From the NCBI GenBank assembly GCA_964016885.1, contig OZ024742.1, positions 173,662,001-173,726,000 on the forward strand: a stretch of 64,000 nt of DNA. The letters run 5' to 3'. The stretch is from Eledone cirrhosa (taxonomy: Eukaryota). Position 1 is the stretch's first letter; each line of letters starts with the position of its first letter. The position numbers were made by a program, and so were the translations under genes. Of this stretch, positions 17,039-52,599 are shown piece by piece. Below the pieces are notes generated by a model. That model was not told where the DNA came from and did no database searches. It saw only the letters and a program-made list of their open reading frames with translations.

Positions 17039-17537
17039 TTAGTAATGAACGAAAGATATATACTTTATATCATCTCTATTTATTTCCTTCTATATATTTC
17101 GAAGATGCAAAGTGTTATGTATAACATAAAGCAAAATATGTCCTCCTCAGACAAATAGGTAGAAATGTACAATTTGTTCCTGATATGCTGGTAGAGAAAC
17201 GAACTGGATAGATTGAGGACCGCCAGTCATATGACTAGAAAAACCTCAGCACTTAAGGGTGTTACGTGATTAGGTGGAAAACATTACATTATATGAATGG
17301 AAAAAATGAAACGAAATTTCATTTCCCACTCTTAGTACGGCTGTTACTTAAATATAAGTATGTATACGTACATACATATATGTATCCAGACGTACAGTAA
17401 TGCACACCTATATATATGTACGTATGGATTCACCAAACATTTATGATAATGCTCGGTGTATTTGTAAACAAACATCCCGTATTAAGCCGCAGTGTCTAGC
17501 AACCACCGTTGCTCGTTTGTCCAACACTGACAAAGGA

Positions 17538-17580
17538 ACGCTGTACTAGTTTCAAGCTTGTTAGATATCGTCAGCAACGT
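17538..17580 (-). ncRNA. Type I hammerhead ribozyme, family A (stem II mismatch)
   Basis: Reverse complement: ACGUUG CUGACGA U AUCU AACA AGCU U GAAA CUAG UA CAGCGU. Confidence 0.7.
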
Positions 17581-17966
17581 ATACCTTCCTGCCAGTTTGT
17601 TGAACGTCCGAAAGTATATACTTTCCTTATGCATATTAACGGCTGAGTAGCCCAATTTGCATATCGAGTGGGTTAATCGGCCAGGAGCACCGGAAACGAT
17701 AAATGGAAAAAAATGAAACGAAATTTCATTTCCCACTCTTAGTACATCTGTTACTTAAATATAAGTATGTATACGTACATACATATATGTATACAGACGT
17801 ACAGTAGTATGTATATATATATACATACATGCACACATATATATATGTACGTATGGATTCACCGAACATTTATTATAATGCTCGGTGTGTTTGTAAACAA
17901 ATATCCCGTATTAAGCCGCAGTGTCAAGCAACCACCGTTGCTCGTTTGTTCAACATTGACAAAGGA

Positions 17967-18009
17967 ACGCTGTACTAGTTTCAAGCTTGTTAGCTATCGT
18001 CAGCAACGT
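17967..18009 (-). ncRNA. Type I hammerhead ribozyme, family A, intact
   Basis: Reverse complement: ACGUUG CUGACGA U AGCU AACA AGCU U GAAA CUAG UA CAGCGU; palindromic stem III ACUAGU; stem I extends AAGG/CCUU and GUUCAACA-type/UGUUGAAC. Confidence 0.85.
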
Positions 18010-18382
18010 ATACCTTTCTGCCAGATTGTTGAATGTCCGAAAGTATATACTTTCCTTATGCATATTAACGGCTGAATAGCGGAATTTGCATATCAGTGGG
18101 TTAATCGCTCGGGTGCACCGAAAATGATAAATGGAAAAAATGAAACGAAATTTCATTTCCTGTACGTCTGTATACATATATGTATGTACGTATACATACT
18201 TATATTTAAGTAACAGCCGTACTAAGAGTGGGAAATGAAATTTCGTTTCATGTTTTCCATTTATCGTTTTCGGTGCACCCGGCCGATTAACCCACTCGAT
18301 AAGCAAATTGGGCTACTCATCCGTTAATATGCATAAGGAAAGTATATACTTTCGGACGTTAAACAATCTGGCAGTAAGTTAT

Positions 18383-18425
18383 ACGTTGCTGAGGATAGGT
18401 AACAAGCTTGAAACTAGTACAGCGT
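18383..18425 (+). ncRNA. Type I hammerhead ribozyme, family A (stem II mismatch)
   Basis: acgttg ctgagga t aggt aaca agct t gaaa ctag ta cagcgt. Confidence 0.7.
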
Positions 18426-18804
18426 TCCTTTGTCAGTGTAGAACAAACGAGCAACGGTGGTTTTAGACGCTGCGGCTTAATACGGGATGTTTGTTTACAA
18501 ACACACCGAGCATTATAATAAATGTTTGGTGAATCAATACGTACATATATATAGGTGTGCATGTATGTATATATATATATATACATACTACTGTACGTCT
18601 GTATACATATATGTATGTACGTGTACATACTTATATTTAAGTAACAGCCGTACTAAGAGTGGGAAATTAAATTTCGTTTCATTTTTTCAGTTTATGGTTT
18701 CCGGTGCACCCGGCCGATTAACCCACTGATATGCAAATTGGGTTACTCAGCCGTTAATATGCATTAGGTAAGCATATACGTTCAACAATCTGGCAGGAAT
18801 GTAT

Positions 18805-18847
18805 ACGTTGCTGACGATAGCTAATAAGCTTGAAACTAGTTCAGCGT
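18805..18847 (+). ncRNA. Type I hammerhead ribozyme, family A, intact (GUU site)
   Basis: acgttg ctgacga t agct aata agct t gaaa ctag tt cagcgt. Confidence 0.82.
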
Positions 18848-19224
18848 TCCTTTGTCAGTGTTGAACAAACGAGCAACAGTGGTTGCTAGACACTGCGGCT
18901 TAATATGGGATGTTTGTTTACAAACCCACCGAGCATTATAATAAATGTTCGGTGAATCCATACGTACATATATATATGCGTGTATGTATGTATATATATA
19001 TACATACTACTGTACGTCTCTATACATATATGTATGTACGTGTACATACTTATATTTAAGTAACAGCCGTACTAAGAGTGGGAAATGAAATTTCATTTCA
19101 TTTTTTCCGTTTATCGTTTTCGGTGCACCCTGCCGATTAACCCACTCGATTTGAAAATTGGGCTACTCAGCCGTTAATATGCATCAGGTAAGTATATATG
19201 TTCAACAATCTGGCAGGAAGGTAT

Positions 19225-19267
19225 ACGTTGCTGACGATAACTAATAAGCTTGAAACTAGTACAGCGT
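19225..19267 (+). ncRNA. Type I hammerhead ribozyme, family A (stem II mismatch)
   Basis: acgttg ctgacga t aact aata agct t gaaa ctag ta cagcgt. Confidence 0.72.
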
Positions 19268-19468
19268 TCCTTTGTTAGTGTTGAACAAACGAGCAACGGT
19301 GGTTGCTTGACACTGCGGCTTAATACGGGATATTTGTTTACAAACACACCGAGCATTATAATAAATGTTCGGTGAATTCATACGTACATATATATATGTG
19401 TGCATGTATGTATATATATATCCATACTACTGTACGTCTGTATACATATTTGTATGTACCTGTACATA

Positions 19469-19543
<75 letters not shown>

Positions 19544-25009: not shown

Positions 25010-25215
25010 TATCTATACGTACATACATATATGTATACAGCCGTACAGTAGTATGTATATATATACATACATGCACATATATATATATGTCTACCGTCTA
25101 CCTTCCTGCCAGATGATTGAACGTCTGAAAGTATATACTTTCCTTATGCTCAGCCGTTAATATGCATAGGGAAAGTATATACTTTCAGATGTTCAATCAT
25201 CTGGCAGGAAGGTAT

Positions 25216-25258
25216 ACGCTGCTGACGATAGCTAATAAGCTTGAAACTAGTACATCGT
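25216..25258 (+). ncRNA. Type I hammerhead ribozyme, family A
   Basis: acgctg ctgacga t agct aata agct t gaaa ctag ta catcgt (one stem I mismatch). Confidence 0.75.
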
Positions 25259-25730
25259 TCCTTTGTCAGGGCAGCGATGGTTGCTAAACACTGTACGGCT
25301 TAATTAGGGATGTTTGTTTAGAAACAAACCTAGCATTATAATAAATGTTCGGTAAATCCATACGTACATATATATGTGTGCATGTATGTATATATATATA
25401 CATACTACTGTACGTCTGTATACATATATGTATGTACGTATACATACTTATATTTAAGTAACAGCCGTATTAAGAGTGAAAAATGAAATTTCGTTTCATT
25501 TTTTCCATATATATATATGTATATATATATATATACATACAGGTACACATACATATATGTACGCGTCAGTTTAGCGGACGCCTATTATAGCGCCCGCTTT
25601 GTTCGTTTGTAAACAAACTGAACAGCCTGAATTTATGCCGCACGGTGTTAAGGCAACCACGTCACCTTTTTGTTCAACACTGACACAGGAACGATGTACT
25701 AAACTGATGCGTACATATATGTATGTGTAC

Positions 25731-25878
<148 letters not shown>

Positions 25879-26117
25879 GCATGCTACTGTACGTCTGTAT
25901 GCATATATGTATGTACGTATACATACATACTTACATTTAAGTAAGTGCCGTACTAAGAGTGAGAAATGAAATTTCGTTTTCATTTTATTACAACTCATCG
26001 TTTTCGGTGCGCCTGACCGATTTAACTCACTCGATATGCAAATTAGGCTGCTAAGCCGTTAATTTTCATAAGGAAAGTATATACTTTCGAGCGTTCAACT
26101 ATCTGGCAGATGGGTAT

Positions 26118-26160
26118 ACGGTGCTGATGATAGCTAACAAGCTTGAAACTAGTACATCGT
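26118..26160 (+). ncRNA. Type I hammerhead ribozyme, subfamily B, intact
   Basis: acggtg ctgatga t agct aaca agct t gaaa ctag ta catcgt. Confidence 0.87.
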
Positions 26161-26311
26161 TCCTGTGTCAGTGTTGAACAAAAAGGTGACGTGGTTGCCT
26201 TAACACCGTGCGGCATAAATTCAGTCTGTTCAGTTTGTTTACAAACGAACAAAGCAGGCGCTATAATAAGCGTCCGCTAAACTGATGCGTACATATATGT
26301 ATGTGTACCTG

Positions 26312-26349
<38 letters not shown>

Positions 26350-26586
26350 TGCTACTGTACGTGTGTATACATATATGTATGTACGTATACATACATACTT
26401 ACATTTAAGTAAGTGCCGTACTAAGAGTGAGAAATGAAATTTCGGTTTCATTTTATTACAACCCATCGTTTTCGGTGCGCCTGACCGAATCTAACTCACT
26501 CGATATGCAAATTAGGCTGATCAGCCGTTAATTTTCATAAGGAAAGTATAAACTTTTGAACGTTCAACTATCTGGCAGATGGGTAT

Positions 26587-26629
26587 ACGGTGCTGATGAT
26601 AGCTAACAAGCTTGAAACTAGTACATCGT
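26587..26629 (+). ncRNA. Type I hammerhead ribozyme, subfamily B, intact
   Basis: Identical motif to 26118-26160. Confidence 0.87.
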
Positions 26630-26780
26630 TCCTGTGTCAGTGTTGAACAAAAAGGTGACGTGGCTGCCTTAACACCGTGCGGCATAAATTCAGGCTGTTC
26701 AGTTTGTTTACAAACGAACAAAGCGGGCGCTATAATAAGCGTCCGCTAAACTGATGCGTACATATATGTATGTGTACCTG

Positions 26781-26820
<40 letters not shown>

Positions 26821-26935
26821 TGCTACTGTACGTCTGTATACATATATGTATGTACGTATACATACTTACATTTAAGTAAGTGCCGTATAAGAGTGAGAAA
26901 TGAAATTTCGTTTTCATTTTATTAGAACTTATATA

Positions 26936-28510: not shown

Positions 28511-28620
28511 AATTAGTATATCTACCAACATATATATACAGATGCATACCTACGCTAGCAAATATATACATTTTGTCTTAGTAACTTTGTGGTTCAATGC
28601 AAGGAGATGCAGAACAATTA

Positions 28621-29340
28621 TATGAAAGACGTAAAATAAGAAAATTATAAAAATTAACTTACTTACTAAAATTTCACTCCAACTAATTAGTTTCTAAAAG
28701 GGAATAAACATGGTTTCCGAATGGAACATGGAGAATACCTTTCGTCATCAGGAAGTCAATTCTCAGCTAAGTTCCCAGGCGATGCGTGGACACAGGGAAC
28801 AATAATTCAGTGGATGGAAAAAAGCAAACGAGGACTAAATCCCAGGACATTGAAAAAATCAGTGCCTACTTGGTCGGTGGCAAATTCAGAAGAATCAATC
28901 ACGTGACATCGAGGTTAATGAGTGAGGTGTTAATAATTATCTCCAAATTATTTTGTTGAGTAAAAATTTGCCAAAACTACAACTATAGTTCATAGTAATA
29001 GCCAGTCTACTCTCTTATTAACACCCCACTCCTCACTGATTAACCTCGATGTCACGTGATTGATTCTTTTGAATTTGCCACCGACCAAGTGGGCACTGAT
29101 TTTTTTCAATGTCCTGGAATTTTGTCCTCGCTTACTTTTTTCCATCCACTGAATTATTTTTGTATAAGTTCCCTGTGTCCACGCATCGCCTGGGAACTTA
29201 GCTGAGAATTGACTTCCTGATGACGAAAGGTATTCTCCATATTCCATTCGGAAACCATGTTTATTCCCTTTCAGAAAGTAATTAGTTGGAGTGAAATTTT
29301 AGTAAGTAAGTTAATTTTTATAATATTCTTATTTTACGTC

Positions 29341-29350
<10 letters not shown>
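28621..29350. repeat. Fold-back with ~310 bp arms (28621-28930 / 29024-29350)
   Basis: Arms are reverse complements (ORFs 28721-28906 + and 28990-29247 - are near-identical); contains ctgatga..gaaaccatgtt core-like motif. Confidence 0.85.
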
Positions 29351-29377: not shown

Positions 29378-29835
29378 TAACAGATTAAAGTTTAAGCAAA
29401 GAATCGCTGCTTTCACCCTTAACGGGATCTTCTGAAACTAACAAAGTCAATCTGTAATCGCAGAGCTGGATATTTCAAAAACCGTTGCAACCGGAGGAAG
29501 ACAGGAAGACGATACTTTGGTTCGTGGAAACGTTCGCTGGCAAAGAACGGGAAAGAACGAATAACACGTCATTAATAGGAGCGGTGAAAAACAATTACGC
29601 GCAAAGACAGAACCACGTTTATGGTATAAAAGAGGTCATAGACTAATGTTCTCTTAGGTGGTGCATAGAGACGTTCTCTGGCAATGAACGAAAAAACGAA
29701 GATAATACGTCATATTTGGTGCGTGGAGAACAATAGCACGCAAAGACACAACCACGTAAATGGTATAGCAGAAGTCGTAGACTAAAATTCGAGCCCTCTT
29801 TGGATTTTAGTCTTCAAATTAATTATTATTACTAT
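29372..29835 (-). mobile_element. Solo Penelope pLTR-like element (family E), inverse homolog of 55080-55500; internal ~140 bp tandem; hammerhead-like motif at 29381-29454
   Basis: Reverse complement: cagattga..agttt CAGAAGA t ccc gttaa ggg t GAAA gcag cgattct ttgc TT aaact ttaatctg; partial third copy at ~35903-35956. Confidence 0.7.
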
Positions 29836-30235
29836 ATATATATAGATATATATTGTGTGTGTGTGAATGGGAAATACCAAAGATCATTTATTGAAAGTCT
29901 CTGGATATGTATACTTTTTATTAGAGAAGGTAAAACAGTATACTATTTCACAATGATGTAAACATTCAATTATAACATTCTGTATTAATATTTAGTATTG
30001 CTGTATACTGCCAGTAATATGTACAGTATATATATATAGACTATAATTAATAAAAAAAAAATACACACCTTTTTCCGTACAAATTTGATTTCACTGTTTT
30101 GTTTTCACTTATGTATTTTTTTAACATGTTATTTATTTATAATACAAATTATATGATAGCATTCTATATGTGGGTGGGCCCCATTCATCTCCTGGCAACC
30201 AATATTTTTAGACCCAGTCCGCCACTGAATATATG

Positions 30236-30327
<92 letters not shown>

Positions 30328-31256
30328 TGAATGTTGGTGACTGTGCGTGCGTGTGGGGGGGGGGGGGCGTGTGTGTGGAATGCGTTGCTTGATTCAGTTT
30401 ATAGAAAATGTACGTCGAATAAATTATTAAACAAAATAATATATTCTGCCAGATACATTACATTAATAAAACACATTTTACCTGTCGGTATTTTTCAATT
30501 AAAAGTATATGAGAAAGACGAAGTAATCAAAATTTTAGATATTATACTATAACGATTAACCAGGAATCTAATTTTCGGAAGCAATCCAATACACATAAGA
30601 ATTGAAATAATTACTTTAATTACTATCTAGTCGTCTTGAAAATTAATAAACTAATTATTTTATCAAATCTCTACAGGCTTATATAATGACATCAATCGTA
30701 GGGGATGGCAGAACTTATTTATTATTTACATTTTACTCTGTGGTTGAGTTGATGTAATATGCACTTATTCTCTCTAATGCATCTACATTGAGACAGAAAC
30801 TATACTGTCTATTACATCAATCTGAAATCTTTGGGGATATTAACATCAACAAACGATAGTGAAACAAATTAAGTCGGGAAAGAATTATTAACTACTAACA
30901 CTATTAACAATGATGTAGCACAAATAATATAAGCCGAGTATCAGATCGGACCAAGAAATTAATGTTTCCATTTTTCATTTGCCGGTCGGAACTCCTGTCA
31001 GAAAGAAACAGGATCTGATCAAGGAACCTAATAATCCGGATGAGATACAGCAAAGCACTTTATCTGATTCCGTACCAATTCTGCCAGTTCACGATCCCAT
31101 CACCTGTTGGTTATTCATCGATTCTGAAATGACTGAAGTGCAAAGTTAACCTCGGCGTATTTCACCTCAGATCATGATGCACCGGAGAAGCAACCGGGTT
31201 ATTTATTCAGACCCTCTAAGTACTTACCCTCTAACAATAGCGCAAACAATATATAA

Positions 31257-31436
31257 TTGTTTCTACTTTTGGCACAAGGCCAGTAATTACCCAGTGCATT
31301 ACTGGTACTTTATTTTATCGCCCCGTAAGGATGAAAGGTAAAGTCAACCTCGGCGGGATTTGAACTCAGATCGTAAAGGGACGTAACTATGCTGGAAAGC
31401 ATGGCGTCCGATCCTCTACTGATGCTGCCAATCCAC
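31257..31436 (-). mobile_element. tRNA-derived SINE, same family as 20049-20226
   Basis: High identity over the full length; further partial or decayed copies near 21710-21800, 31120-31180, 32420-32560, 35333-35460 and 57265-57362. Confidence 0.88.
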
Positions 31437-34400
31437 ATACACGGAGATTTTGCAACAGAAACTAGATCACAGGATTCAAACACTCATAATCTCCACTCAA
31501 CTGTTGTGCTGTAAATGGGAGTGAACAGGAATTTGCTTTAATGATTTATTCCAAGTCCATCATTGTTTCCGTGGAGAGCACATGGGTCCGGTATGTTTCT
31601 CGTTGAGTGTAAGTAGAATTTGAGCTTAGAACGCATAAAAGTGACACTGAGATACACCGCTATACCTCTCTGCCATTCCACTACCCTAGAGTGGTATTTT
31701 ATTTATCGAGCCTGATGATGGAGTGTAAATTTGACACTAATGAGATTAAAGGTCCCTCCCAAAGGAACACCCGCCGGACATGGTGCTCGAACCATCAGCA
31801 GGGTAAGTAGACGCCTTTCTGTTCTCATCAGCTGTCAACATATTCGACTTTCCCATTTTCCGTAGTTACTGGCCTTGTGCAGATTTAAAAACAAGTGTTG
31901 GCATAAACGCTTAAGAGCCAGAATAAATGTTTAGGTTTACTTAGTAAGATAGAATACTTTCCATGTGGTATTTATATTTTATCCATATTGGGTCAATAAA
32001 TTAATACCTGGAATGTATTGAAGTCAGTTTTCACAACGAAATTCTCACCAAATCAATATGAGACTTAGTGCCAATGTACAAAAATCAATTTTAATACCTG
32101 CCTGAGTCAAACGTCACTGAGTTTGTTTTATTGATTTTCCACTTGAAAAATAAAATTTAGCAATTTCGCATATTTATCATTAGTATATGTTTTCCCAGGA
32201 ATCTTCTTTGGTGTATGTATCCGTGCATGTCAAGTGGTTGCATCATTGCTTACATTATTAGTGTAGTTATAACACCCTTTTCAACAAAGTAGCTCACTCT
32301 GAAAATGTTAATCACTAACAATTATTTATACGCTAATATTACTAAGTAAACTTTACGTCTATACAGTTTTTCAACCATTAAGTGTATTTTTCGTTCCCTG
32401 CATTTTTCAAAAGGACGACGGCAGTGTCATTAGAGCATTGGAGTAAAAATGCCTCTGTACGTCTACCAGCTGAGGGCAGTCTGAATTCCAACCCCACCGA
32501 AGTCAATTTTGCCTTTCATCCTTTCGAGGTAGACAATTAAGCAGCCACTGCAGTATTAGAGTCAATTCTTCGTCACTTTCTATGTTTGGGTGAATTCGAC
32601 TGTGTTTCAATCTGGAGAGGAATTGGCTCTACTTGTTTTAAAATGATGAAGACACATCATGTGTCAGAACAACACCCTTACGAATCCACGTGGTGGTAAA
32701 GCCTATTTACCTTTACCGTTTATTAAAAAGTGGCTATTACTTTCCCATTAATCTGAGCGATCTTTGATAAATCATCTGCTATGCAGAGGAACTTATTGCT
32801 TAAATGTTCTATTTGTATTCTCCGTAGATGACGTAAGAGAAATAGTGTGGCCAGTGACAGGAGATGTTATTAGATATTTTGTTTAATATCTAATAATAGA
32901 GATTTTTTCTTCCTCAGTGTAGTTAAAGTATAATTTTTTACACATGTAATTAATTCTGTTAATGAAATGCTTGTAATTTGAAAGGAAATTAGAATAGTAC
33001 CATTAAAGTAGTTTTTTCGGTGCTGTTGACGCCAGAAACAGGAGTAGTCGTGTTTCTGGCGTCATAAATACTTCGACTGAAAGCTAATGAGCGGGGATGA
33101 TTCTGTTTGTAAACGTCCTCTTTCTCTCTTTGCTACCGATTACGTATGACCTTTTTCACTACCTCTGCGCTATCCTTTAATATCCAGCAATCTTCTATCT
33201 GTTGCTACCATTTTTGTCAGGTTTTACTGACTATGCCTACTGGTAATGGTACGCAGATTCTTCCACTTATTTTGCTTCTTTCTATTGCAACTTTCTTTCC
33301 TTTTTTTTCTCTCACTCTCTTATTTCCTCTCTCATACCTTTTACTCATGGCAAATCCCCCCCCCCCCCCATTATTGCCGTTTCTAGTTCGTTCCACTAGT
33401 TTATTTCATTCTATTGGCCATCATTGTAATAATACGACGTCCTTTATTTCGATATTCCATTACTTTTGTTTCATCGATTCTCTTCCCCTAAGCATTATTC
33501 CGTTAACTACCTACTTGTTCCCTATATAGTCGAAAGACTGGTATTTGACTGTATAATTATAATGATAACTATATCAACAGTTATATATTTAATTGTTCCA
33601 TGTATAATCTTTTAGCGCCAATGAACGACGTCTGTGACATATTTTCGTTTCTGTATGATACCAGAGTAGTGTTGGAATAAATTCTTTATGCTATTGATAT
33701 CGTCGGATTGAGTCTTATGCTTACAAATCATCGAAATATATCCATTTTACAGCTGATAAACTGGAATGGGGAAGTTTATGCTGCGTTTCGTTCACCCATT
33801 GACTATATTTGTATATTTTGTGTACAATTTTTAGAATATTCTGGATTAGCTACTTATTAAATTACCACGGTAATATATGGAAATGTCATGATTTCAATCT
33901 ACACGTTTGATGCGCAGATTGATACTGTAGTTACGTCTATCATACCTCTAAACACGAGCCGATCATCTATGGGTTATGTGCAAAGATTCATATGGTATAA
34001 AAACATGTTATATATGTATATATATATAACATATATATACTCAATGAACCAGAACAATTCTCCCCATCCATTTTTTCTTGACCATTATCTTTTGTTTGGC
34101 ATAAAATCTCTAAATAGCTACAAAAACATTCCCAAATACGTGCGCGAAATGTAATGTACTTGTTCAGGTGACAGTCATAATTTCATTTATAACCAATCAA
34201 ATTACATTTATAAAAACACTTTTTTGAGCCACTTTTGTTAAGTAAACAGAAACTCAAACACGAAATGGAGCGAAAGTTGATATGATTATTCGCGTGACTG
34301 CATCAATCAAGAACATTTCACTCATATATGAAAAAAACAATGTGAGCCTCCCCCCCCCCCCCTTTTTTAAGGTAAATATAATAAGAACTTTGTAAAGCGA

Positions 34401-34533
34401 ACTAGCCCGAAATTTATTATTCTTATTCATGTGGCAGTCTTCAACCAACCAAATTACTTTTCTAAAAACCAAGCATTTCGAGCTACATTTTTCCATATAA
34501 AACAGAAGTAACATTCGAACACCAACCAGATAC

Positions 34534-35266
34534 GAGAAAACCCACAAACACTTTATCTCAATTCTACTTTTGAAAAGCACAAGAACTGCGAAACCTGTAA
34601 AGGAACCAAATAAATATTCTTAAAAAGACTCAAGTTGCATTTTCGATTTCATCTTTTTTCCTCATATATATATATGAGAAAAACCACAAACCCTCCATCT
34701 CAATTCTACTTTTGAAAAACAGAATAACTGCGAAACCGGTAAAGGAACCAAATAAATATTCTTAAAAAGACTCAAGTTGCATTTTTGATTTCATCTTTTT
34801 TCCTCATATATATATATATATATGAGAAAAACCACAAACCCTCCATCTCAATTCTACTTTTGAAAAACAGAATAACTGCGAAACCGGTAAAGGAACCAAA
34901 TAAATATATTTTTATACAAAAAAGACTCCAGTTGCATTTTCGATTTCATCTTGTTTCCTCATATATATATATATATATGAGAAAAACCACAAACCCTCCA
35001 TCCCAATTCGACTTTTGAAAAACAGAATAACTGCGAAACCGGTAAAGGAACCAAATAAATATTCTTAAAAAGACTCAAGTTGCATTTTTGATTTCATCTT
35101 TTTTCCTCATATATATATATATATATATATCAGAAAAAACACAAACCCTCCATCTCAATTCTACTTTTGAAAAACAGAATAACTGCGAAACCGGTAAAGG
35201 AACCAAATAAATATATTTTTATACAAAAAAGACTCCAGTTGCATTTTCGATTTCATCTTGTTTCCT
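34534..35266 (+). repeat. Five-unit 142-155 bp tandem array, each unit with a U3-A8 minimal hammerhead (family F)
   Basis: ttc(ta)ctt TTGAAAA acag aataa ctgc GAAA ccgg TA aag gaa at 34704, 34852, 35007 and 35159, with a variant at 34562; units separated by variable (AT)n; alternating variants suggest a higher-order dimer. Confidence 0.8.
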
Positions 35267-35463
35267 TATACTTCGACACGTGTAGGACACCTCGTTTTTT
35301 TTTTATTTTGTAAAATAACCTCACTTTCTAATAATTGTTTCTACCTTAGGCACAAGCCCAGCAAATATCCAGTGCATTACTGGTACTTTATTTTATCGAC
35401 CCTGTAAGGATGAAAGGTAAAGTTATCCTCGACGGTCTCTACCGATACTGCCAATCCACCGGT

Positions 35464-35493
<30 letters not shown>

Positions 35494-35501
<8 letters not shown>

Positions 35502-35810
35502 GCTTTCACCGTATTTTTGACTAAAGGAATTTTAGCTTGATAACGGGGTTTAGAACCCTCAGATAAATGGAAAAAGATGAGTATTGACGTACATGCGAGT
35601 CGAACCCACATCTGTGGTTATCGCGACCACTGTGCTACCATTACACCAACACATCACCCATCTCTTTCCATTCAAATTAGAAACTACATTCTGAGCGAGT
35701 TTAAATGGCAAGTAAGTATGTTGTGAAACAGTGAGCGAGTTTGAAATTAGAAAATATATAGCTTTCACCGTATTTTTGACTAAAGGAATTTTAGCTTGAT
35801 AACGGGGTTT
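35494..35810 (-). mobile_element. ~260 bp unit with ~57 bp terminal direct repeat containing a tRNA-like cloverleaf
   Basis: atatatagctttcaccg...taacggggttt at 35494-35551 and 35754-35810. Confidence 0.7.
35585..35655 (-). pseudogene. tRNA-like sequence (tRNA-Gln-like D arm, non-canonical anticodon loop)
   Basis: GATGTGT TG GTGT AATGGTA GCAC A GTGGT CGCGATA ACCAC AGAT GTGGG TTCGACT CGCAT GTACGTC A; A and B boxes; T5 run ~10 nt downstream; lacks U33. Confidence 0.65.
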
Positions 35811-35952
35811 CCCTTCTCCTAGAATTCTGCCTTGACAAAGGCTAAGGGGTCATCTCTCCCGGTGATTTTGGACGCCCTTTGACGGGTTTTGTTTTTAGTC
35901 CTGCAGATTAAAGTTTAAGCAAAGAATCGCTGCTTTCACCCTTTACGGCATC

Positions 35953-36010
<58 letters not shown>

Positions 36011-36783
36011 TTCTTGGTTTCTAAGAACACCCAAGACATATTTTGGAATATATACATATATTTTAGCAATAAGATCACGATAAAAAGAGGTCGCGGCCAT
36101 TCCAACAGTCGATAAAAAAACTGTTTTATTCGAAAATAGGTAAGAGTTTGATCTCATCGAAAGTGCATTGCTGGGATGTTTCAATCAAGTCTCTGCTTAT
36201 TACAGGCCCATATCCTACTTTTTGTTTCACTAACTTCGGGTGGAGGTGGATGTCATTTCTTAGATAATAAACGTCATTGTATTAAATTAAATAATATGTA
36301 AATCTAAATATGTCAATGCTTTTTCGTATTATTTGTATATCTAAAACGTAGTTTTCCCTTTTGAAAAACTTGTATCCATTCATAGATTTGTGCATCTGTG
36401 TGTTGGACATCTGTCGGGTCCAACGAGGAGTTATGCAGTTGATTCGATTGACGGAACAGCCTACTCATGTCATTAACGGTAAAAAGACAGTGTATTTCGG
36501 AGAGAAGTGTGCCTTTAACGTAATTCTCAGTAAATTTTAGCGTGACATCGTATTTAAGAAGGTCTGGACCTTTGAATTATAGACACAACACACTATTGCT
36601 AGCAGAGTGAAATTAAGAATATATTGTACTGAAAGGTACCGCTGCGAGGCAATCGCACGACCGTTCTATCGTGAACAGAGCACATCAACCACTAAGTCAC
36701 TTACATTCACACATTGAAAATATTCTATGAAACACACACATACAATAGCTGAAAACTCGGTCTAGGGTGTGATATTCCTGCTA

Positions 36784-36829
<46 letters not shown>

Positions 36830-38429
36830 GAAGATGTAAAAAATAATTATATATACGTTTGTATGGTATTTTATTTACTTCAAATATTTACTTCCCATCC
36901 ACACTCTTAATGTTCCTGGATACTTTATCTATATCTCTCTATCTTCTCTCTCACTCTCTATCTCTCTCCCTCTCTTTCCTACTATCCCTGTCTCTCTCAT
37001 ATTACATGTATATGTGTGTGTGAATGGAGATAGAAAGAGAGCGAGAAAGAGCAGGAGATAGATATATACGAATACATATCTATATTTTTCTCAATATATA
37101 CCGTATTTACCGGCGTCGAAGGTGCTCTTTTTTCCTTAAATATGTCGAAAAAATATGTCATGTAACCTGGTGGTTGTGTTTCTCATATGCATATCCTAAA
37201 CCCAGCGGAAAATTATCTAGCTAGACAGTAATCTGAACACCTATATATGACCTCTCAATGAAGTATATAAATTATACTTAGTTAAAGTAATAAATAAACA
37301 AAAGTATCATGAAAATAAAATTATGTATATGTAATCGCAAAAATTGATCCCGTATAGGCAGAGTATGTTAGACGAGGCAACTGACGAGTGATAATTTTAC
37401 ATGTTGTGTCGCAATATTGTCGGTATTTTCACTCTCTTCAAACAACCCAATATTAAGGGAACACTAGATCATCTGTGACCCGTTGGGTCACGTTCACTTA
37501 TTTTTTTTAAATAACTAAAATATACACAAACATGTATATAATGTGAAATGAAACTGGAAGGCCCATATATATATATACATGTGTGTATGTATATATATAT
37601 ATAAATGTGTGTGCTTGTATACATATATATATATATTTGTGTGTATATATATAGATATATGTGGGGGTGGGGGTGATCTATATACAGTGTCATAGACACA
37701 CACATACATATATATATATACATACACACTCACATATATATATATACACAGCAACAACACCACCTCTCTCTTTCTTCGATTCTCCTTCTATGTCTCCTCT
37801 CCCTCTCTATATGTCTCTCTTTCTATCGTCTCTCTCACAACCGCTATCTCTTTCTCTCTATGCTTCTCTATCTCTCTCTCTCTCTCTCTCTCTGTTTATG
37901 ATGGTACCCAGAAACCCCATATCTCGGGAACCCGTGCTTCTATTTACGCGAAACTTGTTTTATTCCATTTGTATTCCCATTTCAGGGGCAACTCCTTTCA
38001 AAGTATTTTCCCATTATGCGACATTTTGGCTGCATTACATTACAGACAAGCAAGCAATCACAGACTTTTAGTATTAAATAGATAGATAGATAGATTACTA
38101 AGTGAAAAAAGAAGTAAATTTGTCATATGTTAAAAGGGTTTACCAGCAAATATTAAAAAGATTATCGTAATCTGTCTTGATATCAGAGCGGAAATCAGTC
38201 ACGGTTAGCAACTGTAAGGGATAACCCAAATAAGTGTTAGGATAACCAGCCAAAATAAGGTCTAGGAATATTCTGAGTGGCGTGCTGGAAGTTACAGTAT
38301 AGTTTTGCATTGGATCTGCATAGTTAACAAAGCACGAAGTTCCAGGATCTTATTTATACGTTTATTATTAATTTTTCAAATTTTTTGGTAATCCTCGAAG
38401 TCTTGAACGACGGAAAATATGGTATATTC

Positions 38430-38498
<69 letters not shown>

Positions 38499-39150
38499 TA
38501 TAATGTATATATATATGTATGTGTGGATATGTATGGATGTTTCTACGTATGTGTGTCGGGCTGTCTATCAATTTATCTATCTGCCCATCTGTCTGTTTAA
38601 CTATCCTTTTTCACTTCCAGTCTATTTTTTTCTTTTTATGAAATGTCAATTTTGTTTTCCTTTTCACATTCTTCAAATCTTCTATTTTTCTTACTCAAAT
38701 CTGTTGTTTTGAAAGTGAGAACCCGGGAGATTTTGATGATAAAACTAATATCTCTTTAGTCTATATCTGCATTTATTGTAAATTTCTCAGGAATTCACCT
38801 GGGTGCTGTAAACTTTGGAAATATTTACTAGACAAAGCAATTGTTCATTTTATTTCGACACTCGGCAGTCGTTTCAAACCCCTGGAGTGTTCTTGTAATG
38901 CCATATTAAAAACAAGTTTCTTCAAACAACGTTTTCGCAGCAATCTCAGTATTAATACTACATTACTATAGTTTCTGAGGAGAAATCTGATTCATGCGTT
39001 CAACCTATTATTCCATGTGTGTTTTCAATGGTTACACATTAGTTTTTCAATAGTATTATTAGTCGATTTACATTTGATTTAGATGTATGTCGTATATGCT
39101 GGTTTGGTGTTGTTAATTTGGTTTTGTTAGATTTGACTTTATTTCTTTCG

Positions 39151-39243
<93 letters not shown>

Positions 39244-39669
39244 ATTTGCGCTACGTTATTTAGAAATGGCTACAACTTGTGATTTTGGTTAGTAAGCATT
39301 TATGCAATAAATTAAAGCACTCGACGTTATGCCTATCATGTGCCATCCCGGACTGGTGCAGGAGCGGAGATAAATATTCATTAAAACAGAAGGTTGGACT
39401 GGAAATTTTCTTTGAAATATAGTTCAATGAACCAATTTCATCGTCCGATCTTGGTGCAAAGCATACGTGATTTCTGGGAGAGGTTGACGTTACAATAACA
39501 CCGAATTGGCAGGCCTTTCCCGAATCAAATCTGTTTGCAATGTTCTCTATTTGTGTTCGTCGTAATCTTAACTTATGTAACTAATTCTGCATAGTGTTTT
39601 CGAGGAATTAATATTGTAAAGAAAGTTTCCTGTCTGGCTTTCTGATATTTTTAATGAGCATATATAAAC

Positions 39670-39752
<83 letters not shown>

Positions 39753-39757
<5 letters not shown>

Positions 39758-42133
39758 TATGTCCATAGAATCATTTGATAAGATGTATACACTATTTCCT
39801 GTCCCAATCCGCATAATCAACCACACATAAAAGCAATTAAACCAGGCTATAAGATTAAAAGGCACCTATGAAGAAATAATAGATAAATAAACTTTCTAAT
39901 ACTTATCTATCTATCTATCACCTATCCATCCATCTATATATATATATATATAACGATTTACATATACACAAACTAGACAAAGTCATAGATATATATATTG
40001 TTGGCAACCATTCACGATGTGGCTCAATGTTGAATTAATAAATTAAATAATCAGAGCAATATACTATAAATTATGTCCATAGCATCATTTGATAAGATAC
40101 ATACACTATTTCCTCACCCAATCCGCATAATCATCTACACATGAAACCAATTCAACCAGGCTATAAGATTAAAAGGTACCTATAAAGAAATAATAGATAA
40201 ATAAACGACAGCCATATATTCGCGATCAACGGCAATAGAATATTTACCCAGCATTTCAATAGCACCTGGAAATCGATTAAATATATCGTCAACCATACAC
40301 AATTAAGTATAAAATTGAAGTTAGAAGAAAAAATGCATAAAAACATACCAGGATTACGTGTCTACCCTATAGGGTTTCATTCGCTTTTGGAAATATCCAA
40401 CAAGGATATATTTCCGAGCTTCGAAATCATGAGGAAACAAACTCACTTTGACGAAGATTTTTCTGAAATGATCCCCGCCAGAAACGAATACAAAATGGCT
40501 AAGAACTGTGACTTGGCAGTGCTCAAGTCAGAAAGAATGTGATTGGTGCCTTACGGCGAGTAGGCTGGTTGCTAGAAAGCGCAGCCTAATATTGCCTAAA
40601 TTGCATCTTAACCTTATAGGAGATTATCAAATATAAAGATTTACATATATACAAACTAGGCAAAGTCATAGATATATATGTTTTTGGCAACTATTCACGA
40701 TGTGGCACAATGATGAATTAATAAATTAAATAATCTGAGCAATATACTATAAACTATCTCCATAGAATCATTTAATAAGATATATACACTATTTCCTCAC
40801 CCAATCGGCATAATCAACCACACATAAAGCCAATTAAACCAGGCTATAAGATAAAAAGCCACCTATGAAGAAATAATAGATAAATAAACTACAGCCATCT
40901 ATTCGCGATCAACAGCTATAGAATGTTTACCCAGCATTTCAATAGCACCTGGAAATCGATTAAATATATCGTCAACCATACACGATTAAATATAAAACTG
41001 AAGTTAGAAGAAAAAATGCATATAAAAATACCAGGATTACGTTTCTACCCTATAGGGTTTCATTCGCTTTTGGAAATATCCTATCAAGGATATATTTCCG
41101 AGCTTCGAAATCATGAGGAAACAAACTCACTTTGACGAAGATTTTTCTGAAATGATCCCCGCCAGAAACGAATACAAAATGGCTAAGAACTGTGACTTGG
41201 CAGTGGTCAAGTCAGAAAGAATGTGATTGGTGCCTTACGGCGAGTAGGTTGGTTGCTAGAAATCGCAGCCTAATATTGCCTAAATTGCATCTTAACCTTA
41301 TAGGAGATTATCAAATATAAAGATTTACATAAATAAACGACAGCCATCTATTCGCGATCAACAGCTATAGAATATTTACCCACAATTTCAATAGCACATG
41401 GAAATCGATTATAGTTGAGATGCAATTTAGGCAATAAAAGGCTGCGCTTTCTAGCAACCAGCCTACTCGCCGTAAGGCAACAATCACATTCTTTCTGACT
41501 TGACCACTGCCACGTCACAGTTCTTAGCCATTTTGTATTCGTTTCTGGCGGGGATCATTTCAGAAAAATCTTCGTCCAAGTGAGTTTGTTTCCTGATGAT
41601 TTCGAAGCTCGGAAATTTCCCCTTGATAGGATATTTCCAAAAGCGAATGAAACCCTAAAGGGTAGAAACGTAATCCTGGTATGTTTATATGCATTTTTTC
41701 TTCTAACTTCAATTTTATACTTAATTGTGTATGGTTGACGATATATTTAATCGATTTCCAGGTGATATTGAAATGCTGGGTAAATATTCTATAGCTGTTG
41801 ATCGCGAATAGATGGCTGTCGTTTATTTATCTATTATTTCTTCCTAGGTAGATTTTAATCTTATAGCCTGGTTTAATTGGTTACATATGTGGTTGATTAT
41901 GCGGATTGGGAGAGGAAATAGTGTATATATCTTATTAAATGATTCTATGGACATAATTTATAGTATATTGCTCTGATTATTTAATTTATTAATTCAACAT
42001 TGAGCCACATCGTGAATGGTTGACAAAAACATATATATCTATGACTTTGTCTAGTTTGTGTATATGTAAATATTTATATATATATATATAGATGGATGGA
42101 TAGATGATAGATAGATAGATAAGTATTAGAAAG
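39753..42133. repeat. ~684 bp unit array: partial unit, two tandem units, partial unit, then one inverted unit (41415-42133)
   Basis: gatttacat landmark at 39955, 40638 and 41322; 39891-39950 is mirrored at 42075-42133. Confidence 0.9.
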
Positions 42134-42281
42134 TGTGTGGAACTAGCCATTGAAACGGCAAGATATGAGCCGTCGGGGTCTAGACGTTTTATAATTTAAC
42201 TATACTCAATTACCGCAAGTTTCGAATACTCTGTTGAGTAATGGTCTCACCAATTTCAAGCTGAATCTATCCTGGTTTATG

Positions 42282-45143: not shown

Positions 45144-45484
45144 CATACATACATATATATATTTGAGTGTGTGTGCGTGTGTGTACGGAAAGTAAACGGA
45201 TACAATGAATCAAATCACACCACACAATGAAGATATATATTAGTTTAATACTTGAAATACGAGGAAAAATGTCTTAACCATTTGGAGGCTAGCCATTCGT
45301 CACGAGATGGAATGGGAAATAAAAGAAATACAAAAATAGAAAGTGAGATGAGGAAGGAAGAGACAAAATATATCATTTGAGATAAACCACGTCTTTCCAG
45401 TCAGCCATTTTGAGGAAACACACACTCAGGCGCAGATATATAATTCTATGTATATATGTGTGTGTGTATATATATATATATATA

Positions 45485-46045
45485 AACGGAAAAATGAAAC
45501 GAAATTTCATTTCCCACTCTTTGTACGGCTGTTACTTAAATATAAGTATGTATACGTACATATATATATGTATACAGACGTACAGTAGTATGTATATATA
45601 TATATATATACATACATGCATACATATATATATGTACGTATGGATTCACCAAACATTTATTATAATGTTCAGTGAGTTTGTAAACAAACATCACGTAATA
45701 AGCCGTAGTGTCTAGCCAACATCTTTGCTCGTTTGTTCAACACTGACAAAGGAACGCTGTACTAGTTTCAAGCTTGTTAGCTATAGTCAGTAACCTTCCT
45801 GCCAAATAGTTGAACGTCCGAAAGTATATACTTACCTTATACATATTAACGGCTGAGTAGCCCAATTTGCTTATCGAGTGGGTTAATCGGCCGGGTGCAA
45901 GCTCACAAGCTTGAAACTAGTACAGCATTCCCTTGTCAGTGTTGAACAAATGAGCAACGGCGGTTGCTAGACACTACGGCTTAATACGGGATGTGTGTTT
46001 ACAAACACACCGAACATTATAATAAATGTTTGCTAAATCCATACG
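45485..46045. repeat. Family A unit (-, hammerhead core mutated at ~45754-45792) fused to a partial + unit
   Basis: Homology to the 17297-17700 unit; ctgacta replaces ctgacga; + fragment begins at ~45901 inside stem II. Confidence 0.8.
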
Positions 46046-46273
46046 TACATATATATATGTGTGCATGTATTTATATATACATACTACTGTACGTCTGTAT
46101 ACATATTTATATATATATATATGAGTGTGTGTGTGGTGTGTGTGTGGGGGGGGGGGGTGCGTGTGTGTATGTGTATGTGTGCGTGTGTATGTGCAAATGG
46201 CTATATAAATCCATATTCAATGTGCTTTCGGACTATAAACCTGATGTGTTTTAAATATTCACATATATTCTTT

Positions 46274-48015: not shown

Positions 48016-48103
<88 letters not shown>

Positions 48104-48148
48104 GAGAGTAAAACAAAGAATCCTTTAATACATCAAAAGTTTTTATTA

Positions 48149-48186
48149 GCCGACAATGTTTCGTCCTATTAAGGACTCATCAGGGC
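48149..48186 (-). ncRNA. Minimal type I hammerhead in the inverted pLTR (family H)
   Basis: Reverse complement: gcc CTGATGA gtcct taat aggac GAAA cattg TC ggc. Confidence 0.88.
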
Positions 48187-51100
48187 AATCAAAACAACAA
48201 GAGGTAATATCGGCAGATACAAGCCGGAAACTCTGAAGAATATGGAGTGTACATACATTAATGTCTTACCAAAATATATGATAATAAAAATGAAAATAAA
48301 AATAAAAACAATAAAAATATATAATAAGAATAACTAAGGATGTAGATAACATTAAGAACCATATTACAAATACAGTCCAAAGCAACTAACCTAAATCTAA
48401 ACAAATTTGGTTATATAGAGCAGGAATTATATATAACACAATATAATACATTATAATAATAATATACTTTTACCAACATTAAAATTACAAATTAAAAATC
48501 AAAAGGTACAATATATACATGTATATATGTGCGCACACTCATGTTCTCTGGGATTAATAGACTTGAATCTAATAAGTTTATCCAATTCGATATTGATGCC
48601 TACTACACATCAATTTCACCCATCCTCCTCAATAAAGCCTTAATGTTGGCCATGAGAGTGTCCAGCCTTACACGATCGCAGGTAGATATTATACTAGCAG
48701 CCCGTAAAACTATTATTAAATTTGAGGACACATTTTGGACCCGTAAAACACGCCCAATAATTTCGACGTTACAATGGGTTCGAGTGATTCGGCCCAGGTT
48801 ACTGATCTTGTTGGGTTGTCCCTCCTTAATGAACTATACGCTACCTTCCCGCACCTTATAGGCGGACTATATCGTGATGATGCATTGTTTGTAATTAACT
48901 CTAGCACCAACAATGTAGAACATAATAAGAAGAAGCTTTATAAGTTTTTTAAAATCTACAACCTTTCGATCACGATAGATAGAAATGATAGAGCGTTTAA
49001 CTTTTTAGATGTGACTTTGGACTTGGCCACTAATAGTTTTAAACCCCTCCATAAGCCTAATGAAATTCTTTCTTAAGTTAGCCCCAACTCTAACCACCCT
49101 AAGTCTATGATAAACTCTATAATTAAGGGCGTTTCTAATAGGATTTCCACACTATCTAAGGACATAGGAACACTTAATGAACATGCGTATACTACAATAA
49201 TGCCCTAGCAAATTCAGGTCACTCTAGTAAAATAAATTATAATAATAGTAACCTTAGAAAGTCTCCGCTTACTCTTAATAATAATAACATTATATCACAT
49301 AACATGGCCATGAATGGGAGTAGCAAATATAGTAACCGTAGAATTTATATAGGTGTATCTGAACCCACCCATAAGTTAACCCACCGGACTCGTAATAGCA
49401 AATATAATACCTCTAGGAGACAAGTTGAACCCCCTGTGCGCTCACGCATAGGTTTTGGTTTTGCTGGATCTTATTCTAATAATGTTGCTCCTACTGATCC
49501 TATCATTGGCCTTAATCCTCTTGTAGGGATTCCGGACAACAGCAGATCTACTGGAGGTAGAAACTATAATAGACATAACGAAATTATGGCTGATTCTATG
49601 AATGTGGCTTCAACTATTCCTGATAGTAACCCTAGTCTCGACGATGGGACATTTGATAGAGGTAGGGTCGATAAGAATAAAAATAAAAATTGAAGGCGAT
49701 TAAATACTTATTTCAACCCGCCATATAATCAGGATGTATCAACTAATATCCCTAGGTCTTTCTTCACTATCTTAGAGAAAAATTTCCCCCCTTCTCACAA
49801 ATACCATGGTATTTTTAATAAAAATGTTATTAAACTCTCATTCTCTACCACCCCTAATATTAGTTCTCATTTAGCTAGCACTAATAATAGGAAAATTAGG
49901 GATGGATTCTCCTCTCAACATACTACTAGTCTGAACGGATCTGACAATGCTTTACCACCAGAACAGTCCTTATCTAATAGAGGTCCTACGTGTAATACAT
50001 CACCACTCGAGCCAACCAATAACACCCGGAAGTGCAATTGTAGAGTGAGTGCTAACTGCCCGCTATACGGTAACTGCCTTTCTAAGAACATTGTCTACGC
50101 TTGCGAGGTTATAACTAATTCCTCTAATAGAACGTATATAGGATCTACTTCAAACACTTTTAAGACTAGGTTTAACTCTCATATCTCTAACTTCAAACAT
50201 GTTAGGTTTAAGAATTCTACCTCTTTAGCGCATTATATCTGGGATCTTAAGGGAGCTTATATACCATATAGCCTTAACTGAAGTTTAGTAGCACGATCTA
50301 ACCACCTTTCTGCACATAGTAAGTTTTGTAATCCCTGTATACTTGAGACACACTCTATTATTTCCTCTAGCGTACCCTTACTGAATAGAAAGTCTGAGAT
50401 ATTCTCTTCTTGCCCCCACGCCATTTCTAATTCTTATTTTTATTATAAACCCAAATGTTCTAGTAGTATAAATTGTACCCATTAGCAGATATATTCCATT
50501 ACTTAGTTTTTTGTTTGGGTTCTTTTGTTTGCCAACATTAATGTTATCATCATTATCACCATTGGTTTTTGATGACTCTTCATTCTAGCTCTCTTAATCA
50601 TTTGGCTACTGTACCATATCTATGTTTTCACTATTACACCTTGTTAATATACATAAGATTACACACTTTACGCCACTTACGTTATTCTATTATTATCTTT
50701 ATTTTTTTTATTTTAATTTTAATTTTAATTTTATTTTTAATTTTTAATTCTATTTTTATTTCTAAGTTTATTCTGATTTATCTTTCGACAACCCCCAACC
50801 ACCCTCCCCCCTTCCCCATCCCCCCATGCGCACATAAACTTATTGTCAACCCCTCCAGATTGACTATGATTATATTTACCCCCCCCCCCCTCTTTTATGC
50901 TCCGTTCTATTATTTATTATAGTATATCGACTATATTTTATGCCACTTCGCACCCTCCATATATTTCGTGAATTCTGTCCCCATTAGCCTACCTTAATTC
51001 TACTTAAGTCAGTTTTTTTTGATATCGTTGCGTATATGATAGTATAAAATGTTCATTCCTTTTTGTAAACATTTGTAACGATACATTAAAGTTTATATAC

Positions 51101-51431
51101 TTTAATGACTTAAACTACAGCTAATATTATACTACCTTATTGGACGGGTTTGTTATTTTTAATATTAATTTATCAAATAGGGTTTGGAGTCAATTAAAAT
51201 GATTGTTTTCCTTAGTGTTTACCTAATTTCTTAAATGCACGCGAGGCCTAAGTGTGTATATATTTGCTTTTGTTTTGTAATTTCCGGTTGATTTTATTTA
51301 TTTATTTTATTCTATATTCTATTTACTATTCACTGTCTGGCTTTGCTTACTCATCCACATATGTCTGTCTACTAACCTTGTAATTATAAGTATTTATATA
51401 TGTTATGCCAATTTATAATATATTATATTAT

Positions 51432-51617
51432 ATTGTATTGTAATATTGATCCTTATTACTTACTGTTCATTATATGTAACATTATGATATTTGAACTTTA
51501 TATATCATGTAAGATGTCTGGATTTTTGTAATATTGTAATATTGATCCTTATTACTTACTGTTCATTATATGTAACATTATGATATTTAGACTTTACATA
51601 TCATTTAAGATGTCTGT
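51432..51617. repeat. Two-copy ~96 bp tandem duplication in the PLE 3' UTR
   Basis: tattgtaatattgatccttattacttactgttc...aagatgtctg appears twice. Confidence 0.8.
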
Positions 51618-52031
51618 ATATTTTTTTCTGTAACATCATAATTTTTCCCTGTACCATTATAGTGTTTCTTTGAGTATTATATAATTTATTTTTCCTCATT
51701 TATTCTGTAACCCAGTATGAATCGATTTGTATATATTGCTTATGGTAAATGTTAGTACACTGTTAACGTATTATCATTGTATTTTATTGTGACATCTATA
51801 TTGTTTCTGTAAATTAACCGGGGATTATCTATTTTATTATATTATATTGAATTATATAATGTTGTTGTTTATTATTTGTTATATGTGTTTCTTGTAATTA
51901 TATCATATTATTGCCTCATGTATATTGGGTAGATGTATTAGTATTATTTTCACTCTTATCATGCTTATTTTTATATTCAAACTTCTAATAGGGCTAAATT
52001 TTGTGTAGTGGAACATAGATGTGTGTGTTGT

Positions 52032-52071
<40 letters not shown>

Positions 52072-52414
52072 CATATATACATGTATATATTGTACCTTTT
52101 GATTTTTAATTTGTAATTTTAATGTTGGTAAAAGTATATTATTATTATAATGTATTATATTGTGTTATATATAATTCCTGCTCTATATAACCAAATTTGT
52201 TTAGATTTAGGTTAGTTGCTTTGGACTATATTTGTAATATGGTTCTTAATGTTATCTACATCCTTAGTTATTCTTATTATATATTTTTATTATTTTTATT
52301 TTTATTTTCATTTTTATTATCATATATTTTGGTAAGACATTAGTGTATGTACACTCCATATACTTCAGAGTTTCCGGCTTGTATCTGCCGATATTACCTC
52401 TTGTTGTTTTGATT

Positions 52415-52452
52415 GCCCTGATGAGTCCTTAATAGGACGAAATATTGTCGGC
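52415..52452 (+). ncRNA. Minimal type I hammerhead in the 3' pLTR (family H)
   Basis: gcc CTGATGA gtcct taat aggac GAAA tattg TC ggc. Confidence 0.85.
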
Positions 52453-52599
52453 TAATAAAAACTTTTGATGTATTAAAGGATTCTTTGTTTTACTCTCTTA
52501 ATTTTTTGGATCTGTTTAACTGCATTGAGCTATACCTTTTACTGTTATTTCTATAATACGAAGAGGGTGTTTGACTCCAACACGCTCCAGTATTCTAAT

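Follow-up and report, generated by a model that had tools for sequence, protein, structure and literature searches.

Dimeric hammerhead variants have reportedly been described from Penelope elements by Lunse et al.

A U3-A8 pair in the hammerhead core is a natural covariation of several hammerheads and is active in vitro; in the same source, Perreault's filter rejects a mispair at 10.1-11.1 (PMC3088659). About 1300 matches to minimal hammerheads with U3-A8 were found in the Cercyon elements of Schistosoma mansoni (Cervera and De la Pena 2014, PMC4209133), where hammerheads of this type had low activity even as dimers, and minimal animal hammerheads lie mostly away from ORFs, with a helix I as short as 2 bp (PMC4209133). 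Penelope-like elements typically occur as tandem copies in (TA)n with a tail of 30-40 bp (PMC8557442). Animal hammerhead repeats span 150-450 bp, and retrozyme circles are highly self-paired molecules of 170-400 nt (Cervera and De la Pena 2020, PMC7229834). The HINEs of the oyster (Cg_HINE) consist of about 5 monomers of 140-180 bp inside a dispersed element with a right flank of ~60 bp (PMC7492417).

The array described here lies in a 64,000-nucleotide stretch of Eledone cirrhosa DNA (the window). With the minimal type I hammerheads of Penelope elements, including those of Cercyon with U3-A8, its motif shares the U3-A8 core, G10.1-C11.1 as the family majority, a palindromic 15.2-16.2 and loop 3, a short helix I and a predicted need for dimers. 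It differs from them in the absence of an extra nucleotide separating position 9 from 10.1 and in a stem II of 4 bp rather than 7-8 bp; no Penelope ORF is nearby, no covariation was seen, and the motif occurs in one member of an old subrepeat series. The animal non-LTR retrozymes resemble the array as short, low-GC tandem repeats with one type I hammerhead-like motif per unit. However, the array unit is shorter than the 170-400 nt circles, is poorly self-paired, is embedded in a longer element with fixed flanks, and has a core variant and a 10.1-11.1 mispair; neither a self-paired circle nor a monomer that makes up the whole mobile unit was found.

The HINEs of the Pacific oyster also have about 5 copies of a 140-180 bp monomer and a conserved right flank of about 60 bp. 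The array differs in its (AT)n runs between monomers, in a right flank with just a 4-bp hairpin (hairpins have predicted energies of just -2.4 to -3.7 kcal/mol), and in lacking a tetranucleotide microsatellite before the array and the 11-12 nt subTIRs. The subTIR search gave no inverted match of 11 or 12 nt with at most one mismatch between 35255-35335 and 33960-34530; it skipped nearly pure A/T words, and a SINE-like repeat may hide the true right end. Despite the alike architecture, the parent element is not filed as a HINE, because subTIRs were not found.

The original prediction had called U3-A8 a natural swap, and it does match published variants (PMC3088659, PMC4209133); the core variant itself is thus already published. 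Literature on hammerheads, retrozymes and Penelope elements in octopus and cephalopods, and on U3-A8, held no description of the array family in titles and abstract beginnings, and the supplementary motif alignments of PMC4209133 and PMC7229834 may bear on its novelty.

The tandem array and its hammerhead-like motif

The array and the motifs within it are as follows.

34530..35270, plus strand: tandem array in which 4.9 units, each of 142-155 bp, follow one another as A A B A B; a higher-order period of 307 bp is superimposed (TRF, unit comparison)
34656..34683, no strand assigned: (AT)n run within an inverted repeat, marking the first of the four junctions between units
34562..34605, plus strand: hammerhead-like motif of unit 1; G10.1-C11.1 formed, stem III non-palindromic; putative cut after 34599
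34704..34747, plus strand: hammerhead-like motif of unit 2; U3-A8, A10.1.C11.1 mismatch, ACCGGU; putative cut after 34741
34852..34895, plus strand: hammerhead-like motif of unit 3; putative cut after 34889
35007..35050, plus strand: hammerhead-like motif of unit 4; putative cut after 35044
35159..35202, plus strand: hammerhead-like motif of unit 5; putative cut after 35196

Both the tandem repeat and its hammerhead-like pattern are real. TRF recovered the repeat of about 150 bp that had been claimed, with a period of 155 and 4.9 copies (34530-35270), together with a second period of 307 bp in 2.5 copies that represents a higher-order duplication. Core-to-core spacings are 142, 148, 155 and 152, and the GC content of the unit is low (0.27-0.30). 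The variable (AT)n linkers that had been noted between units were found, with 6, 9, 9 and 11 repeats (34664-34675, 34806-34823, 34961-34978 and 35109-35130). Two variants of the unit exist, as had been proposed, a short form A and a form B that is 7 nt longer in the 3' half; they do not strictly alternate, the order being A A B A B. No target duplication was seen at the array edges, where the flanks of the parent element are continuous with the array on both sides. A coding reading of the unit was rejected: a 121-aa minus-strand frame (34254-34619) had no Pfam match, and stops and (AT)n runs interrupt the frames. A scan for bacterial promoters, which is not relevant to animal DNA, gave no promoter signal above shuffles.

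All five units read U3 U4 G5 A6 A7 A8 A9 (UUGAAAA, from 34570, 34712, 34860, 35015 and 35167), followed by GAA, A15.1-U16.1 and A17 (34599, 34741, 34889, 35044 and 35196), a type I core in which the Watson-Crick 3-8 pair is U3-A8 throughout. Stem-loop II measures 13 nt and stem I consists of 3 bp, a 2-nt bulge and 3 bp in every unit. The core was thus read exactly as the original prediction had it. The rest of the anatomy, which had been ascribed to every unit (CAG/CUG stem II, GAAA, ACCGGU, GUA triplet and a bulged UUC-CUU/AAG-GAA helix), is complete in units 2-5 only; unit 1 has the non-palindromic ACCUGU and a different stem II, in which G10.1-C11.1 is formed and the inner pair is broken. 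Overall the hammerhead anatomy stands, with one feature that had gone unmentioned: positions 10.1-11.1 form an A.C mismatch in units 2-5, while the pair is intact in unit 1. The ACCGGU palindrome of stem III occurs in four of the five units and in the family majority. None of the seven predicted pairs showed compensatory changes among the five copies.

The element that holds the array

The unit is an internal subrepeat of an element of ~1.3 kb and not a free-standing monomer. The parts of this element are listed here.

34044..35320, no strand assigned: dispersed, high-copy, non-coding element of ~1.3 kb, ends approximate, that holds the array; (TA)n to the left, SINE-like repeat to the right (read/contig coverage)
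34096..34229, plus strand: old subrepeat a, without hammerhead core (a-c z 9.6 and a-b z 4.0 with window letters; 11.9 and 7.9 with majority letters)
34230..34347, plus strand: old subrepeat b, without core; its first 46 nt match the hammerhead-like segment at 27/46 ungapped
34356..34483, plus strand: old subrepeat c, which shows homology, in its 3' half and junction, to the array unit's 3' half (z values, shuffles)
34484..34529, plus strand: 5' part of subrepeat d, occurring once; the tandem units have an (AT)n run in its place
35271..35320, plus strand: right flank of ~50 bp, conserved and high-copy in the family, with a T-rich end

Four read or contig sets were compared with 33900-35500 at 80% likeness: three contig sets from one sample, perhaps the window's own source (X1-X3), and a RAD library from a second sample (X4). 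Coverage runs from 34045 to about 35320. Depth on the motif in X1 reaches 1-2 x 10^5 per position against about 23 on unique flank, and the family is plainly very abundant and dispersed, even though depth does not equal copy number. Individual contig pieces span the upstream flank and the unit (e.g. 34468-34630 and 34441-34628). In X4, 106 raw reads connect 34504 with 34675 across 26 intervening letters and so lead from the upstream flank into unit-2-type sequence. In the right flank, majority differences (at 35274, 35275, 35278 and 35304) occur in 63-86 contigs per run.

Subrepeats a, b and c (118-134 bp) are mutually homologous (z 4.0-9.7 with window letters, 7.9-12.6 with majority letters) and share a TCACGTGA palindrome in family-majority letters; none of these three siblings contains a hammerhead core. 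The 3' half of c, taken together with the c/d junction, can be aligned with the 3' half of the array unit, both where unit 1 ends (z 5.0 and 6.1, 0/1000 shuffles) and where unit 5 ends (z 3.5 and 4.9), and the unit is therefore the fourth member of the series, d, with the same bounding junction. The a/b and b/c junctions gave no significant alignment to the unit's 3' half. In the tandem copies, an AT run within an inverted repeat takes the place of about 30 nt of d.

As a separate observation, a, b and c (34096-34483) each carry, in majority letters, a GCGAAA/CCGAAA word, the palindrome and a C(C)AA(T/C)CAA word. These words resemble E2F, E-box and CCAAT promoter sites, and they could be promoter or protein-binding repeats of the element. 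To the right of the array, the SINE-like repeat resembles one from octopus genomes. A tRNA-Ser(CGA)-like sequence lies there on the minus strand (35584-35656) between two perfect 57-bp direct repeats (35495-35551 and 35754-35810), and 35495-35810 may be a SINE derived from a tRNA, its target duplication being unusually long.

The read sets also give the majority letters of the family. Among the 40 of 479 differences that were listed, the majority differs from the window at 34719, 34867 and 35174, where it has G at 10.1, and in loop 2 at 34725, 34873, 35028 and 35180. At 34596 the majority letter restores the stem III palindrome of unit 1 (97% in X1, 86% in X4). The family majority thus has G10.1-C11.1, a 4-bp stem II and a perfect palindrome. 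The G10.1-C11.1 pair is present in 96-99% of family depth; non-G at 10.1 amounts to 1.1% (X1) and 4.3% (X4) of depth, so the A10.1 variant occurs in the second sample too. The non-palindromic stem III letter accounts for 2.9% (X1) and 13.8% (X4), and form A for 4.6% and 6.4%. Units 2-5 share minority letters, among them the allele that breaks the 10.1-11.1 pair. As non-G at 10.1 is so rare, the tandem copies make a worse hammerhead than the parent family. Positions 3 and 8 do not appear among the 40 of 479 differences listed, and we infer that U3-A8 is the family majority. Scans of metagenome contigs, viral contigs and prokaryote genomes with motif and subrepeat patterns gave no match, and hence no homolog beyond the source data, as is expected of an animal repeat.

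Within about 5 kb on either side of the element, Pfam and tblastn found no remnant of a Penelope ORF. Only 1 of 12 frames matched in Pfam (six frames each of 29800-34600 and 35200-40000), to DUF2956 with an E of 0.013, below the cut-off, and when pieces of the Penelope ORFs found elsewhere in the window served as tblastn queries, these two intervals were likewise without a match; non-autonomous copies need no such ORF.

Canonical hammerheads of the window, chance expectation and folding

The window is AT-rich, runs of (TA)n and (TAA)n are abundant in it (113 TRF rows), and broken LINE-type RT ORFs lie in its 1-16 kb part. It also contains repeats with canonical hammerheads. Repeats of 420/469 bp with (TA)n between them, arranged both in tandem and inverted (17293-19478, 25149-26929, 45479-46121 and 52613-53083), form a family that carries a type I hammerhead with a canonical CUGAYGA core and a palindromic ACUAGU stem III; 11 copies were found by motif, two of them with a damaged core, and a 1.8-kb palindrome (17293-19114) lies within the family. 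These repeats are a much better candidate for a retrozyme or a non-autonomous Penelope element than the 150-bp array. A Penelope-like element at 48099-52502 has 443-bp inverted ends that are 98% identical, each with a canonical hammerhead (48183 on the minus strand, 52418 on the plus strand), and a GIY-YIG ORF inside it (49694-50278); further remnants lie at 53840-54316 and 58172-58637. Nested inverted and direct repeats of ~700 bp (39746-42134) show, on the minus strand at 40292 and 40975 and on the plus strand at 41735, a UUGACGA ... GAAA pattern with a U3.G8 wobble, which may represent a further hammerhead-like family or a chance occurrence. Several long palindromes inserted between (TA)n runs (28619-29349, 40631-42079, 55524-56307 and 59969-60611) are of the inverted-copy type of Penelope-like elements.

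How often the composite pattern of the array arises by chance was estimated with a loose descriptor that admits units 2-5 and that was composed after the motif had been seen. In shuffles of one unit, 27/20000 gave any match and 2/20000 one with a palindromic loop 3. Block-shuffled 64-kb windows gave any match in 60/300 and a palindromic loop 3 in 3/300; with a 4-bp stem II closed by G10.1-C11.1 the count fell to 0/300. The composite is uncommon by chance, with the qualification that the descriptor is post hoc, that palindromes are commoner in real repeats than in shuffles, and that 1% events turn up often across very many windows. Rfam gave no match at gathering score in the window and no hammerhead match, yet the canonical hammerheads of the window were missed as well. 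Two Rfam candidates were rejected as chance: MALAT1 (RF01871) on the array unit (34664-34746, 34812-34894 and 35119-35201; 24-27 bits, best 26.8, against a cut-off of 70, E 1.2-3.6), and snoR160 in 33500-36500 (E 1.8, among 4227 families).

Predicted folding was compared with that of the canonical families. As circles, the monomers of the four complete units fold weakly (z -1.2, -1.9, -1.5 and -0.9; 42-48% of bases paired) at -0.06 to -0.09 kcal/mol per nt, against -0.30 and -0.33 for two of the window's repeats with canonical hammerheads (420 and 469 bp), whose z values are -6.4 and -8.8. In a two-unit RNA the palindromes are predicted to pair between copies with a probability of 0.76-0.82, stem II with 0.5 but stem I with no more than 0.004, and core U3-A6 would be paired about half the time with a UCAA that lies upstream; a canonical control pair is weak the other way, with stem I at 0.2-0.8 and a dimeric stem III at 0.009. 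The need for a second copy, as originally proposed, thus agrees with the palindromic stem III and its predicted inter-copy pairing. The ACCGGU self-duplex is predicted at -8.3 kcal/mol, and the best stem I duplex at -1.6 kcal/mol, compared with -5.5 and -3.8 in two canonical families.

One dimeric active site would cost 4.2-4.7 kcal/mol here, compared with 3.4-4.3 at the best site of three canonical pairs. As these costs are nearly equal, folding fails to separate the array motif from true hammerheads. The cost of two sites, from ensemble energies, is 10.7-11.3 here and 3.9, 11.4 and 15.9 in the three control pairs. A sharper contrast, in which the dimer fold exceeded the optimum by 10-12 kcal/mol and that of a single canonical pair by 1.0, was dropped as evidence because it had this one control.

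Origins of the array and of the motif

We favour an explanation in which ordinary duplication of DNA, within a longer mobile element, gave rise to the array. This is likely. The fuller reading, that the motif is a look-alike within such a DNA-duplicated subrepeat, we regard as evenly poised, and a look-alike is somewhat more likely than a working self-cutting RNA. Unequal crossing-over or slippage between the homologous subrepeat junctions of the element would have multiplied subrepeat d. The c/d junction would have misaligned with the junction that ends d, so duplicating d, and at the new junction about 30 nt would have been lost and the AT run expanded. The first duplicate would have carried A10.1 and form A, and further duplications of single units and two-unit blocks, with AT runs slipping meanwhile, would have led to the order A A B A B. 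The 307-bp period and this order point to block duplication at the level of DNA. Copying via ribozyme-cut RNA, on the other hand, should keep or improve the ribozyme, and the loss of the 10.1-11.1 pair in the array copies argues against such a route.

The motif itself may have arisen by drift, without RNA function, when the ~46 nt that open the subrepeat were present a second time, a less secure step than the duplication. In a profile search with a, b and c, the five motif segments were among the next six matches in the window after the profile's own members (E 0.61-9), and the score of unit 2 was exceeded by only 10/2000 shuffles. The ungapped match of the 46-nt motif segment to the start of b reaches a level found at 4/127159 other window positions, one of them being the start of b; the positions of b aligned to the segment hold no core. 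Pairwise local alignment of the motif-bearing half with a, b and c was not significant (z at most 1.8 with majority letters, with one raw value of 2.7). Since the alignment test was chosen post hoc, a derivation of the motif segment from the subrepeat start is suggestive only.

In favour of a look-alike are the 10.1-11.1 mispair of the tandem copies, the weak fold of the circular monomers, the low predicted pairing of stem I together with the predicted blocking of the core by the upstream UCAA, and the lack of compensatory change among the five copies. Several observations count against a look-alike. The composite is rare under shuffling, both as it stands and with G10.1-C11.1, and the majority letters fit a hammerhead better than the window's do. 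That the family majority repairs exactly the two features that the local copies lack is the best argument for a real ribozyme. The window is also rich in true hammerheads of the same build, so that the prior for another family is not low, and its canonical family likewise has a mismatch at 10.1-11.1 (U.U).

A ribozyme role for the parent family is possible, and the rival that builds on it deserves serious attention, even if we would not bet on it. The parent would be a non-autonomous Penelope-like retroelement and the motif its genuine, though weak, type I hammerhead, cutting as a dimer via the ACCGGU palindrome. The 150-bp copies would then either be pseudo-LTR-like or have come from later duplication, as DNA, of the parent's 3' part, with a tail of ~50 bp. 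Besides the rarity of the composite and the intact stem II and palindrome of the majority, the predicted inter-copy pairing of stem III and the closeness of the one-site dimer cost to the values for canonical families of the window are consistent with this, as are the published minimal motifs with U3-A8, with a helix I of 2 bp and with sites away from ORFs (PMC4209133). The arrangement of (TA)n, body, tandem 3' copies and short tail fits Penelope-like insertions (PMC8557442), in a window where (TA)n is everywhere. Depth upstream is lower than depth on the unit, as 5' truncation predicts, with the reservation that depth is not copy number and that the upstream part is more diverged. Opposed to these points are the sibling subrepeats without core, a stem I whose 3' strand falls partly at the start of the sequence common with subrepeat c and whose predicted duplex is weaker than in two canonical families, the missing Penelope ORF remnant within about 5 kb on each side, and the lack of covariation among the five copies.

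The original prediction went further and took the unit of 142-155 nt to be a very small retrozyme. On such a reading, dimeric hammerheads would release it from tandem transcripts, and the circularised monomer would return to the genome as tandem cDNA. We consider this improbable. There is one motif per tandem unit, GC is low, the size falls at the low edge of the 150-450 bp range of animal hammerhead repeats (PMC7229834), the excess of unit depth over flank depth would fit arrays elsewhere, and the A10.1 variant is present in the second sample. The monomer, however, is predicted to form a weakly paired circle, unlike the highly self-paired circles of retrozymes (PMC7229834); the unit is internal to a longer element whose flanks continue on both sides without target duplication, its 3' half is homologous to an older subrepeat, the array has a higher-order duplication, and its minority allele worsens the hammerhead by loss of the 10.1-11.1 pair. 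Still less probable is the view that a working U3-A8 hammerhead arose de novo in one subrepeat of a DNA-type dispersed element, and that a ~150-bp piece around it is now separating from the element as a tandem unit that cuts as a dimer. The smallest retrozyme would then be seen at its birth, next to its non-catalytic ancestral subrepeats.

Only this least likely reading, a ribozyme born in a subrepeat series and escaping as a 150-nt circle, bears on the origin of retrozymes, which is an open question. If the motif does cut, the locus would represent a high-copy animal repeat family fixed for an already published U3-A8 core, and a cheap test case for dimeric cleavage. If the explanation that we favour is true, it would be another short satellite-like array grown within a mobile element, and a warning that look-alikes in AT-rich repeats can show the hammerhead pattern in full.
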